64,000 nucleotides of DNA from Verrucomicrobiota bacterium (GCA_043775015.1 JAYVSV010000047.1:67876-131875), one strand, 5' to 3'; shown: positions 27,648-41,183, counted from the stretch's first letter. Numbers and translations are program-made. Notes: a model not told the origin generated them from the sequence alone.

Positions 27648-28511
27648 ATGGCAATTTTTTACGACACACACGCGCATCTCGATTATCCCGAGTTCGAAAA
27701 AGATTTTCCGCAAATCCTCGAACGCGCTCACGCCGCTGGCATCACAAAAATGATTTCCATCGGCACCGATTTGGAAAGCAGCGCGCGGGCGATTGCGCTG
27801 GCGGAAAAATATGATTCCATTTACGCCGTCGTCGGCTGGCATCCGACGAATGTGCTCGAAGCGCCGGACGATATTCGCGAACCGTTGCGCAGATTGGCCT
27901 CGCACCCGAAAGTCGTCGCGATCGGTGAAACCGGTTTGGATTACTATCGTTTGCCCAGTCAGAGCGGCGCGCACGGAGTGACGCGCCCTACCACGACGAC
28001 TGAGGTAGGGCGCGTCACTCCGTGCGCGCCGTCTGCGGAAGATGAAAACTACAAACGCAAACAAGCCGAAATCTTCCGCCAACAAATGGAAGTCGCCGCC
28101 GAATTTGGATTGAACTGCGTGGTTCACCAGCGCGATGCGCTCGAAGACACGATCACGCAAATGCAACCGTTCGTCGGACGTGTGCGCGGCGTTTTCCATT
28201 GTTTCGCGAATGACGCTGCCGCCATGCAACGCATCATCGCGATGGGTTCGCTCGTGAGTTTCACCGGCATTTTGACTTTCAAGAACGGTCAAAACATCCG
28301 CGACACCCTCGCCGCCACGCCGCTCGATCAATTCATGCTGGAAACCGATTGCCCGTATCTCGCGCCGATTCCGTATCGCGGCAAACGTTGTGAGCCGGCT
28401 TACGTGAAAGAAATTTCCGAAGTCGCCGCGCAGGTGAAAAACTGTTCGTTGGAGGAATTAAGCAAAGCGACATGCGCGACGGCGCGGGAGTTTTTTAGGA
28501 AAATATTTTGA
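27648..28511 (+). CDS. tatD: TatD-family metal-dependent hydrolase (DNase)
   Basis: MAIFYDTHAHLDYPEF...GETGLDYYR...VVHQRDA...GVFHCF...SFTGILTFKN...LETDCPYLAP. Confidence 0.9.
   Translation: MAIFYDTHAHLDYPEFEKDFPQILERAHAAGITKMISIGTDLESSARAIALAEKYDSIYAVVGWHPTNVLEAPDDIREPLRRLASHPKVVAIGETGLDYYRLPSQSGAHGVTRPTTTTEVGRVTPCAPSAEDENYKRKQAEIFRQQMEVAAEFGLNCVVHQRDALEDTITQMQPFVGRVRGVFHCFANDAAAMQRIIAMGSLVSFTGILTFKNGQNIRDTLAATPLDQFMLETDCPYLAPIPYRGKRCEPAYVKEISEVAAQVKNCSLEELSKATCATAREFFRKIF
27965..28031. repeat. REP-like palindrome (same family as 3480-3551) embedded in frame in tatD
   Basis: The arms cggcgcgcacggagtgacgcgccctacc and ggtagggcgcgtcactccgtgcgcgccg are translated as GAHGVTRPTTTTEVGRVTPCAP. Confidence 0.85.
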
Positions 28512-28515
28512 ATTA

Positions 28516-28736
28516 TCAGAGCAGCTTGATGAGATCGTCCGCCGTGATTTCGGTCTGCCGCAGAATGGCGCGAAGCGTGCCGCGATCGATTTGCCGATGA
28601 TTGGGAACGACCGTTTGGGCAAATGATTGTCGCGGCGCATAATGATGTGACTGCCGTGTTGTCGCCGGACGGTGAAACCCACTTTCTGAAGAGCGCGCAC
28701 GAGATCGGCGCCGGAAACCTGCGGAAGCTTGCTCAT
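28516..28736 (-). pseudogene. hicA: hicA toxin gene carrying an apparent frameshift
   Basis: MSKLPQVSGADLVRALQKVGFTVRRQHGSHIIMRRDN reads in one frame. The expected continuation ..TVVPNHRQIDRGTLRAILRQTEITADDLIKLL* reads in another. The switch is near 28610-28625. Confidence 0.7.
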
Positions 28737-28939
28737 ACCGCCACAAGGAGAGCATCGAAACGCTCCTTTGGCACGGGAAGCCCGTCGTCTTGCAGAGCCA
28801 GAACGTAACCTTCAATCGCCTCGCGAATATTGGCGATGGCAGCTTCCCGGCTTTCGCCCTGAGAGACGCAACCGGGAAGACTCGGACATTCCGCCACCCA
28901 AAAGCTATCTTCGCCGGGATAGATCATGACCTGTCGCAT
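28733..28939 (-). CDS. hicB: HicB-family antitoxin (UPF0150)
   Basis: MIYPGEDSFWVAECPSLPGCVSQGESREAAIANIREAIEGY. Its stop overlaps the hicA ATG (ATGA). Confidence 0.8.
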   Translation of the reverse strand: MRQVMIYPGEDSFWVAECPSLPGCVSQGESREAAIANIREAIEGYVLALQDDGLPVPKERFDALLVAV

Positions 28940-29000
28940 GTGAAGAAAATAAGCGAGGCCACAGGAAAGCTCAACTTAAACAATTTGTTAGATGGTTGAA

Positions 29001-29181
29001 ATTCATGCTGGAAACCGATTGCCCGTATCTCGCGCCGATTCCATATCGCGGCAAACGATGCGAACCGGCTTACGTGAAAGAAATTTCCGAAGTCGCCGCA
29101 CAGGTGAAAAACTGTTCGCTGGAAGAATTAAGCAAAGCAACGTGCGCAACGGCACGGGAGCTTTTTAGAAAACTTTCCTGA
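29001..29181 (+). pseudogene. Orphan duplicate of the tatD 3' end (last 59 codons plus stop)
   Basis: It aligns base for base with 28331-28511, at roughly nine in ten positions identical by eye. It encodes FMLETDCPYLAPIPYRGKRCEPAYVKEISEVAAQVKNCSLEELSKATCATARELFRKLS. Confidence 0.9.
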
Positions 29182-29209
29182 TTTAAATTCGCTAGTGACC
29201 AAGGCCGAT

Positions 29210-29916: not shown

Positions 29917-29992
29917 CTCACAGACATTCAAAACGTCCTCCAACCGTTTGCCCTTCGATCCAAACCGTTTTGTGGCGCGAAGTCTGGCCGCG
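29917..29992 (-). pseudogene. Orphan remnant of a yggU (DUF167) 3' end
   Basis: It encodes RGQTSRHKTVWIEGQTV... A 42-bp core (29951-29992) is identical to 30239-30280 inside the intact gene. Confidence 0.8.
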
Positions 29993-29997
29993 TTTTT

Positions 29998-30184
29998 ATC
30001 CCGGAGGGATTGCCGAAAATAGCCCGGCGTTTTAACGTCGGGAAATTGTGAGGAAAATAAAAAAGTCCCGAAGGGACGGCTGACGCTTGCCGCGCGTTTT
30101 CGTCCGTCCCTTCGGGACTAACTTCCTTTGGTGAATTGACCCGGCGTTAAAACGCCGGGCTATTCTCAAATGTCCCTCCGGGAC
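29998..30184. mobile_element. MITE-like nested-palindrome element of about 190 bp (same family as 2912-3124)
   Basis: atcccggagggat ... aatagcccggcgttttaacg ... gtcccgaagggac / gtcccttcgggac ... cgttaaaacgccgggctatt ... gtccctccgggac. Confidence 0.8.
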
Positions 30185-30196
30185 TTGTGGAATTAT

Positions 30197-30496
30197 CTAC
30201 TTGGATTTTAGGTCGGTCAAAACTTCCTCAACTGTTTTCCCTTCGATCCAAACCGTTTTGTGGCGCGAAGTCTGGCCGCGCACGATTTGGATTCTGCCGC
30301 GAGAACAATTCAACTTTTCGGCAAGCAAATCGACCAGAGCCTGATTCGCGGCGGCATCGACGGGCGGCGCGGTCACTTTGATTTTTAATTCGTCGCCGAG
30401 CGGTGCGCCGATTTCGTTGGTCGAAGCGCGCGGCTGCAATTTCACGGCGAGATAAACTCCGTTGGCGTGCAGGCGAATGAAACCGGGTTGCGACAT
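30197..30496 (-). CDS. yggU: DUF167 (YggU) family protein
   Basis: MSQPGFIRLHANGVYLAVKLQPRASTNEIG...LKIKVTAPPVDAAANQALVDLLAEKL...IQIVRGQTSRHKTVWIEG. Only the last 99 codons of the 312-aa track ORF are credible. Confidence 0.85.
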   Translation of the reverse strand: MSQPGFIRLHANGVYLAVKLQPRASTNEIGAPLGDELKIKVTAPPVDAAANQALVDLLAEKLNCSRGRIQIVRGQTSRHKTVWIEGKTVEEVLTDLKSK

Positions 30497-36011: not shown

Positions 36012-36890
36012 ATGAATGAGCCGATCGCATTTTTAACCTTCGCGCTAATTGGCGTCACATGCTGGATTTCGTACCTTGGATTCAAGAGCGCCGCTTTCGA
36101 ACGGAAATACATCTTTTGCCCGGAGAATATTCTCAGGCACAAAGAATATTACCGGCTGATCAGTTCAGGTTTTTTACACGCCGACTGGCAGCATCTTTTT
36201 TTCAACATGCTGAGCCTCTATTTTTTTGGAGAGGCGATTGAACTTTATTTCGGGAGACTGATTCTCCTGGTCATTTATTTCGCGGCCATCGTCGGAGGGA
36301 ATCTCCTTTCATTGTATCTCCACCGCCATCACGACTACCTTGCTTACGGAGCGTCGGGCGGAGTTTGCGGGGTGATTTTCGCGCACATTTTTTTGTTTCC
36401 CGGGGGAAGTATTTCGAGTGGCTTGCTTCCGATTTTCATTCCATCCTGGCTCTACGCGGTTCTGTTTATGGCTGGATCGTTCTACCGGATGAAGACGCAA
36501 AAGGACAACATCGGCCATGACGCTCATCTGGGCGGCGCGATCATTGGATTATTTACCACCGCAGCACTAAAACCCGGGATCATCGGCCAAAGTCCTTACC
36601 TGTTTCTGACGATTACACTCGGATCCATCCTGCTGTTCGTTTATCTCGCAAAGAATCCGATGTTCCTCCCGCTGGCGCACGTGATGTCGATGCCGAAACG
36701 GAAATCGCTTTTCAAAATGTTTTCGAAGTCACGGCCGAAAAACTTTCAGGTGGACGCGCTGCTCGAGAAAATTGCCGGGAAAGGAATTCACAGTCTGACC
36801 AAAGAAGAGCACGCCTTCCTCAGCGGCGTTTCGGACAAATACAAAAGACGGGCGGAATCCAAGAAGCCCAAGTCCGGGTTGATCATTTAA
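36012..36890 (+). CDS. Rhomboid-family intramembrane serine protease
   Basis: ..RLISSGFLHADWQHLFFNM.., the catalytic GASGGVCGV, and HLGGAIIG. Confidence 0.85.
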   Translation: MNEPIAFLTFALIGVTCWISYLGFKSAAFERKYIFCPENILRHKEYYRLISSGFLHADWQHLFFNMLSLYFFGEAIELYFGRLILLVIYFAAIVGGNLLSLYLHRHHDYLAYGASGGVCGVIFAHIFLFPGGSISSGLLPIFIPSWLYAVLFMAGSFYRMKTQKDNIGHDAHLGGAIIGLFTTAALKPGIIGQSPYLFLTITLGSILLFVYLAKNPMFLPLAHVMSMPKRKSLFKMFSKSRPKNFQVDALLEKIAGKGIHSLTKEEHAFLSGVSDKYKRRAESKKPKSGLII

Positions 36891-40987: not shown

Positions 40988-41073
40988 GGAGCGACACTGG
41001 GTTAACATGCCTCTGAGGTCAATTCGAAAATCAGGTGAAAACCTGGCCAATACGTGAGTGTTTTGGCGGCGAA

Positions 41074-41183
41074 AGGAATTCACAGTTTAACCAAAGAAGA
41101 GCACGCCTTCCTCAGCGGCGTTTCCGACAAGTACAAAAGACGGGCGGAATCCAAGAAACCGGAATCCAAGTTGGTCATTTGAA
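41074..41183 (+). pseudogene. Orphan duplicate of the rhomboid gene 3' end (last about 36 codons plus stop)
   Basis: It aligns with 36781-36890 and encodes GIHSLTKEEHAFLSGVSDKYKRRAESKKPESKLVI*. The intact gene ends ...KKPKSGLII*. Confidence 0.9.

Follow-up and report, generated by a model that had tools for sequence, protein, structure and literature searches.

Results

The tatD-hicBA locus

The window, a stretch of 64,000 nucleotides from a Verrucomicrobiota bacterium, corresponds to C47:67876-131875, that is, to part of a 151-kb contig in a metagenome-assembled genome of 206 contigs (G000). An intact tatD gene, encoding a TatD-family hydrolase of 287 amino acids that matches PF01026 over the full length of the profile (257.7 bits), lies on the forward strand at 27648-28511, and tatD and yggU converge on an interval that is variable among relatives. 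A repeat search revealed a direct repeat of 186 nt in two copies, located at 28330-28515 and 29000-29185. The proximal copy (c1) is attached to the gene and comprises nt 683-864 of tatD plus 4 nt, and the distal copy (c2) is an orphan 3' end on the same strand, in frame and with a stop codon of its own (29179-29181). The two copies are 670 nt apart from start to start and match at 168 of 186 positions (90% identity). An earlier note, made from the sequence alone, had described this recurrence of the tatD 3' end 670 bp downstream with about nine in ten positions identical, and the alignment bears it out.

Other repeats were seen within tatD itself. A perfect inverted repeat of 28 nt, belonging to a REP-like family, lies in frame within the gene (27965-28031) and adds about 23 residues; this family gives 133 BLAST matches in the genome, a number in which both arms and the query's own copy are counted. 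The REP-like insert is also present in the tatD of the relative L038, and the tatD of G001 carries a different, Pro/Gly-rich insert at the same point. A terminator-like hairpin with a T run occurs in the 3' coding end of tatD (28473-28496) and is retained in the orphan copy (29141-29166); the count of terminator-like matches of this sort is within the range given by shuffles.

The 484 nt separating c1 from c2 hold only hicB and a frameshifted hicA, both on the reverse strand, as the earlier note had read them. The hicB gene (28733-28939) is intact, encodes an antitoxin of 68 amino acids (PF15919, 35.7 bits; PF21748, 28.3 bits) and comes first in the operon, overlapping by 4 nt (28733-28736) the hicA toxin pseudogene (28516-28736). 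PF07927 is matched by hicA in two frames, by pieces of 34.2 and 27.7 bits that each exceed the 27-bit cut-off; an intact orthologue scores 73.5 bits. Alignment with the two intact 73-aa orthologues, from G001 and L038, places a one-base deletion between 28624 and 28625. This missing base could be a sequencing error; taken as it stands, it suggests that the window cassette is now decaying. With a HicA toxin domain and an adjacent HicB-like antitoxin in one overlapping operon, the pair has the make-up of a type II HicAB toxin-antitoxin system, with predicted toxin and antitoxin activity, in which the order is antitoxin first and the toxin is frameshifted in the window and intact in G001 and L038.

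Junction alignments delimit a region upstream of hicB at 28940-28999 (reverse strand), the last 12 nt of which (28988-28999) are filler; it is shared with G001 and L038 as far as '...aaacaatt(tg)'. A putative promoter upstream of hicB, TTGAGC-17-TATTTT, is a reading by eye only and was not among the matches of a consensus promoter scan. The cassette is single-copy, and the other hicBA copies with attached gene fragments that the earlier note had envisaged elsewhere in the genome were not present there. Between G000, G001 and L038, identity of the hicBA cassettes reaches only 79-86%, so that the insertion may be old, or the cassette may have been acquired separately in each genome.

Beyond c2, yggU does not follow immediately, as the earlier note had assumed; an accessory gene and a second duplication intervene. 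The accessory gene (29875-29210, reverse strand) encodes 221 amino acids with no Pfam match, and its GC content is 45.9%, compared with 53.2% for the genome. Outside G000, the gene was detected in just one genome, from a different family (58% amino acid identity), and it is therefore taken to be a separate acquisition in the tatD-yggU interval. The second footprint (29928-30280, reverse strand) consists of a doubled yggU 3' end (29928-29992 and 30217-30280; 65 nt, 94% identity) around a nested-palindrome element of approximately 190 nt; it holds no toxin-antitoxin cargo and is otherwise the same type of scar. The element has about a dozen relatives in the genome and is missing from G004, L038 and L041. 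The conserved far side of the variable interval is formed by yggU (DUF167; 30197-30496, reverse strand; PF02594, 85.6 bits). In G000, G002, G004 and L041, yggU adjoins a PP-loop ATPase gene (NAD_synthase family match), which we take to be larE by resemblance only. In G007 (L033 1649-1849), yggU is 5'-truncated and is followed by ispD, and the whole yggU neighbourhood is rearranged within the genus.

Divergence of the two tatD ends

Aligned in the tatD frame, c1 and c2 show 17 base differences spread over 15 codons. None of the first 13 changes the amino acid (12 are third-position differences and one is a TTG/CTG leucine change), and the remaining four are confined to the last three sense codons, so that the peptide tails read EFFRKIF* and ELFRKLS*; the predominance of third-position differences up to the last few codons, pointed out in the earlier note, is therefore real. 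Counted by codon, 12 differences are synonymous and 3 are non-synonymous, an excess that is significant both against random change (p = 5e-5) and against a local duplication in which one copy is a neutral relic (p = 0.005). Divergence peaks at the extreme 3' end, adjoining the cassette. GC3 is 65% in the body of tatD, 58% in c1 and 50% in c2. The synonymous excess and the divergence of the 3' end indicate that c1 and c2 are diverged orthologous gene ends and not a simple local duplication: both seem to have evolved under protein-level selection, and hence in separate lineages, and to have been joined later in one chromosome. A simple recent tandem duplication, which the earlier note had already set aside, is excluded by the synonymous excess here and in the pooled repeat pairs described below. 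Two states that are rare or absent elsewhere are common to both window copies, which points to gene conversion or a common origin.

Gene-end duplications across the genome

Self-BLAST of the window's genome returned many direct repeats of 45-260 nt that are 85-96% identical and 560-2000 nt apart. When tandem-domain proteins had been removed, and only those pairs kept in which an orphan copy accompanies the end of a gene with 120 or more codons, 25 gene-end duplications with the tatD-like layout were obtained. Toxin-antitoxin genes, confirmed with Pfam, lie inside at least 12 of these loci (13 repeat pairs) and comprise ParE/ParD, PIN_3 with RHH, MazE with PIN, PemK, DUF433, DUF2283/DUF4258 and DUF4160/DUF2442. 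When the 13 pairs were pooled, 116 differing codons were synonymous and 37 non-synonymous; this synonymous share of 76% compares with 28.5% expected under random change (p = 1e-33) and 44% expected if a local duplication had left one neutral relic (p = 2e-15). At 15 of the 25 loci, similarity stops no more than 4 nt from the terminal codon of the gene, the pattern that two orthologous ends with unrelated flanks would be expected to give. No common sequence was visible by eye at the cassette ends of the 25 loci. The tatD locus is one ordinary member of this set, and is made more informative through the array and replacement series found in relatives.

The interval in relatives

The tatD-yggU interval is polymorphic and differs in every member of the genus that was sampled. 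In G004, tatD is followed by a unique 360-nt spacer and then yggU, with no duplicate and no toxin-antitoxin pair, and in G002 by a gene for a 522-aa membrane protein; G004, G002, G003 and G005 each have a single tatD end. The comparison with relatives that the earlier note had proposed accordingly succeeded in that the interval varies and G004 is free of the duplicate, and failed in that no flush empty site was found in any genome compared, each having its own spacer.

Other relatives carry cassettes. In G001, tatD is followed by an intact hicBA, a tatD fragment from nt 728, a ParE-like pair with a frameshifted toxin, a second tatD fragment (nt 624-761), a palindrome and yggU, making two cassettes and three tatD ends. 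The ParE-like pair of G001 recurs in intact form directly after tatD in G007, where it is followed by a tatD fragment from nt 623. In L041, which is the closest to the window in yggU and larE (92%), a ParE/Unstab_antitox pair is followed by a fragment that starts at the same point as c2. In both L038 and L040, an intact hicBA is joined to the first seven codons of parE, and the antitoxin gene and a fragment from nt 728 follow (728, here and in G001, is a by-eye reading of the junctions; BLAST puts the start of the same fragments at nt 730). In all these relatives the cassettes are antisense to tatD, nearly every cassette in the genus is followed by an orphan tatD 3' piece, and the same architecture recurs in five independent assemblies.

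The middle tatD end of G001 is connected to the ParE-like cassette through the junction 'taacatcagagacgagcg', identical to that of the gene-attached end of G007. Because of this identity, the hicBA of G001 appears to have inserted proximally, next to the gene, into an older arrangement whose own tatD end was pushed outward. The hicBA-adjacent tatD ends of G001 and L038 are 95.4% identical, compared with 86.9% for the gene bodies. The hicBA-parE junction of L038 is best read as a homologous join combined with an illegitimate one, with a deletion in place of a duplication. An exact-pattern scan of the genome contigs for the right end of hicBA matched G001 only.

Alleles, joints and recombination genes

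A maximum-likelihood tree of 14 tatD ends (175 columns), built to see which copy matches the gene body as the earlier note had suggested, contained zero supported branches. Pairwise identity and site patterns suggest two allele types of the tatD end: c2 resembles the ends attached to the gene in G007 and L041, the nearest relatives, and c1 the end that adjoins hicBA in L038. Relative to the window, the positions of the two types are reversed in G007 and L041, where the other type is distal; no rule emerges, and to call either copy the resident one would be conjecture.

Orphan tatD fragments in G001 (L032), G007 (L033), L038 and L041 begin at three positions only, nt ~623, 675-683 and 728, all of which fall in or beside the longest nucleotide-invariant runs of tatD. 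Two of the three are abutted by two unrelated cassettes with differing filler, and in three contexts the hicBA segment stops at the same point to within 2 nt; no motif is common to the three start sites. The start at 728 in G001 and L038 probably reflects common descent, because these two share a derived AAG state according to a by-eye reading. The remaining recurrent joints leave room for a possible site-specific step.

No tyrosine recombinase (PF00589) was found on the 151-kb contig, in accordance with the statement in the earlier note that no recombinase gene is nearby, and no transposase or integrase was found in the cassette or on the contig; the genome has nine PF00589 matches, all on other contigs. 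A Ku gene, found in 1 of 14 control genomes, is present in the genome, as is a ComEC gene, which is a weak sign of DNA uptake. An integron cassette array was considered and rejected, there being no recombinase nearby and no conserved sequence by eye at the cassette ends of the 25 loci. A search by eye for the integron core site at the joints gave one GTTRRRY match, at the window junction, which is within chance, and AATT-cutting restriction sites at the joints, likewise sought by eye, occur at chance level.

Discussion

We consider it reasonably probable that DNA of a related lineage brought hicBA into this chromosome through recombination anchored in tatD, and that addiction guards the cassette from loop-out. 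The incoming DNA, from a lineage approximately 90% identical, would have carried hicBA together with that lineage's tatD 3' end, and integration would have been anchored by homologous recombination within tatD. Two routes can be envisaged. In one, a circularised piece containing the tatD end and the cassette would integrate by a single crossover, of the Campbell type and like that suggested for Rhs tips; in the other, one side would be joined by homology in tatD and the other side, downstream, illegitimately. By either route tatD would stay intact, the cassette would come to lie after the tatD stop codon, and a further tatD end would be left 670 bp downstream. An insert between direct repeats of 186 nt would ordinarily be lost by recombination between them, but cells that lost a functional toxin-antitoxin pair would be killed, and inserts with such pairs would therefore persist. 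The dominance of toxin-antitoxin pairs in this type of scar in the genome would be explained in the same way, with addiction selecting against loop-out.

The suggestion in the earlier note that one copy came with the incoming DNA is supported by the synonymous excess, the polymorphism of the interval in the genus, the divergence of the 3' end and the repeat boundary at the terminal codon. Import of the cassette with a gene end is favoured over local duplication followed by allelic replacement because divergence is highest in the last codons, because the repeat boundary is the terminal codon genome-wide and because the hicBA-adjacent tatD ends of G001 and L038 are more alike than their gene bodies. 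Of the two mechanisms that the earlier note had offered for such an import, the homology-based one is favoured, and the integrase-type element that occupies a gene 3' end is disfavoured by the lack of a tyrosine recombinase on the contig and of a motif visible by eye at the 25 loci. The recurrent joints are not predicted by random illegitimate joining, and they count against the explanation that we prefer.

An unlikely alternative is that the target was duplicated locally and that allelic recombination with a diverged lineage afterwards replaced the copy attached to the gene, or that the copies simply drifted apart. Such a footprint is documented for restriction-modification genes (PMC2853133), which are flanked by repeats of 46 to over 400 bp that often lie across a start or stop codon, and the two unusual states common to both window copies would also be accounted for. 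The synonymous excess, however, rejects a single neutral relic copy; the last codons, which differ the most, should have remained identical if a replacement tract had ended inside tatD; and local duplication gives no reason for the repeat to stop at a terminal codon. Phage e14 in icd is an element that brings a replacement gene end, and the cassettes might similarly be remnants or satellites of tatD 3'-end elements, each with a replacement gene end and with an integrase encoded elsewhere. The small number of fragment starts, two of them common to two unrelated cassettes and located in invariant tatD runs, the resemblance to tandem islands of arrays in which each cassette is followed by an att-like fragment, and the nine tyrosine recombinases of the genome all speak for site-specific integration. 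Against it, neither the contig nor any cassette encodes a recombinase, the three start sites have no common motif, the 25 loci have no visible shared end sequence, and the start at 728 in G001 and L038 probably goes back to common descent; as more than 20 different gene ends are used, many specificities would be needed, and we regard this reading as improbable. The chance that the tatD ends of two strains were misjoined during assembly is very slight. The genome is indeed metagenome-assembled, with 206 contigs and an estimated contamination of 3.25%, but where the hicB upstream region meets mid-tatD the two sides share no k-mer by which an assembler might have been misled, and the layout is repeated in the five independent assemblies and at 25 loci of the genome.

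[quoted passage not shown] (2000, Gene 259:99) and by Furuta, Abe and Kobayashi (2010, PMC2853133). In these insertions, direct repeats of tens to hundreds of bp enclose an addictive module that lacks a mobility gene; the repeats frequently extend across the start or stop of a gene, the adjacent gene remains intact, and in relatives the repeated sequence is present once (PMC2853133). The likeness to the present locus extends to a cargo below 20 kb, repeats longer than 30 bp and no linked mobility gene (here 186-nt repeats around 484 nt) and to relatives with one copy (G004, G002, G003 and G005). Repeats that arise by duplication of the target itself, on the other hand, do not agree with the synonymous excess and the terminal-codon boundary seen here. 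The repeats here are 85-95% alike, differ mostly at synonymous positions and end at the terminal codon, as orthologous ends would, whereas the restriction-modification repeat pairs in the tables of PMC2853133 that we drew on are mostly more than 90% identical, several being near-identical. The cargo differs as well: Furuta et al. suggested that DNA breakage by the restriction enzyme underlies the analogous scar (PMC2853133). The cargo here consists of toxin-antitoxin pairs that do not cut DNA, and arrays occur here. HicA, PIN and MazF toxins are RNases, and the property common to the scars of restriction-modification and toxin-antitoxin genes may therefore be addiction.

The displacement of Rhs C-terminal ends through circular intermediates, with arrays of orphan cdiA-CT/rhs-CT ends (Jackson et al. 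2009, PMC2935791), is a second parallel. There, an acquired piece with a copy of the 3' part of the gene recombines in, the old end is shifted downstream and arrays of dissociated ends accumulate, as in the G001 array, where displaced 3' fragments lie behind acquired cargo with an intact gene upstream. In contrast, the new end of an Rhs gene alters the protein, supplying a new toxin tip with an immunity gene, whereas the peptides encoded by the two tatD ends are nearly identical, and what is carried in is an unrelated selfish module.

A third parallel, homology-facilitated illegitimate recombination or Campbell-type insertion-duplication in transformable bacteria, was reportedly described by de Vries and Wackernagel in 2002 and by Prudhomme et al. 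in 2002. In that process, as proposed here, one homologous anchor admits foreign DNA without a recombinase, and the hicBA of L038, joined to parE at codon 7, resembles the classic insertion-deletion outcome. Those experiments are said to have yielded mostly deletions and not duplications, and natural transformation in the present lineage, unlike in these systems, is only hinted at by the ComEC gene.

The spread of chromosomal toxin-antitoxin modules that lack a mobility gene is poorly understood, and the locus is a probable case of recombinase-free entry of selfish cassettes into gene ends in this Verrucomicrobiota lineage. The locus and its relatives provide a clear natural series that fits a homology-anchored route, comprising a duplicate-free site, one cassette alone, an array, a cassette replacement and a decaying toxin. 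In the literature matches surveyed, to the extent of the parts of each that were covered, we met no account of such a footprint around toxin-antitoxin cassettes. Together with the 25 similar scars in the genome, this series suggests that the persistence of a scar depends on addiction; if so, addiction would also account for the unexplained long-target-duplication scars of restriction-modification genes, an idea that can be tested directly in laboratory strains.

A broader model, which we offer as a tentative and rather doubtful one, is that gene-end fragments serve as portable homology arms and that toxin-antitoxin cassettes are recombinase-free mobile units. A circle released by loop-out, consisting of the cassette and one gene end, would reach a related cell and be integrated by RecA at the same gene, and over many such rounds integron-like arrays would accumulate at conserved gene ends, their joints preferring the most conserved stretches; addiction, and not DNA cleavage, would be the shared basis of restriction-modification and toxin-antitoxin scars.

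Repeats of this kind in the genome also enclose other cargo, namely Y1-transposase-like genes, single genes and, in the window, a 4.2-kb pair behind a putative rhomboid gene. Relatives of IS200-like (Y1) transposases lie between direct repeats that range from near-identical to 84% identical at three places in G000 (C90:15787-17010, C161:5418-6445 and C173:2470-3676), of which one was checked with Pfam (a weak match, below the family cut-off) and the other two were judged by eye. Given their REP-like flanks, they could be transposase loci associated with REP sequences instead of gene-end scars. In the window, a 118-nt repeat of 89% identity (36772-36888 and 41063-41180) brackets approximately 4.2 kb of cargo other than toxin-antitoxin genes.
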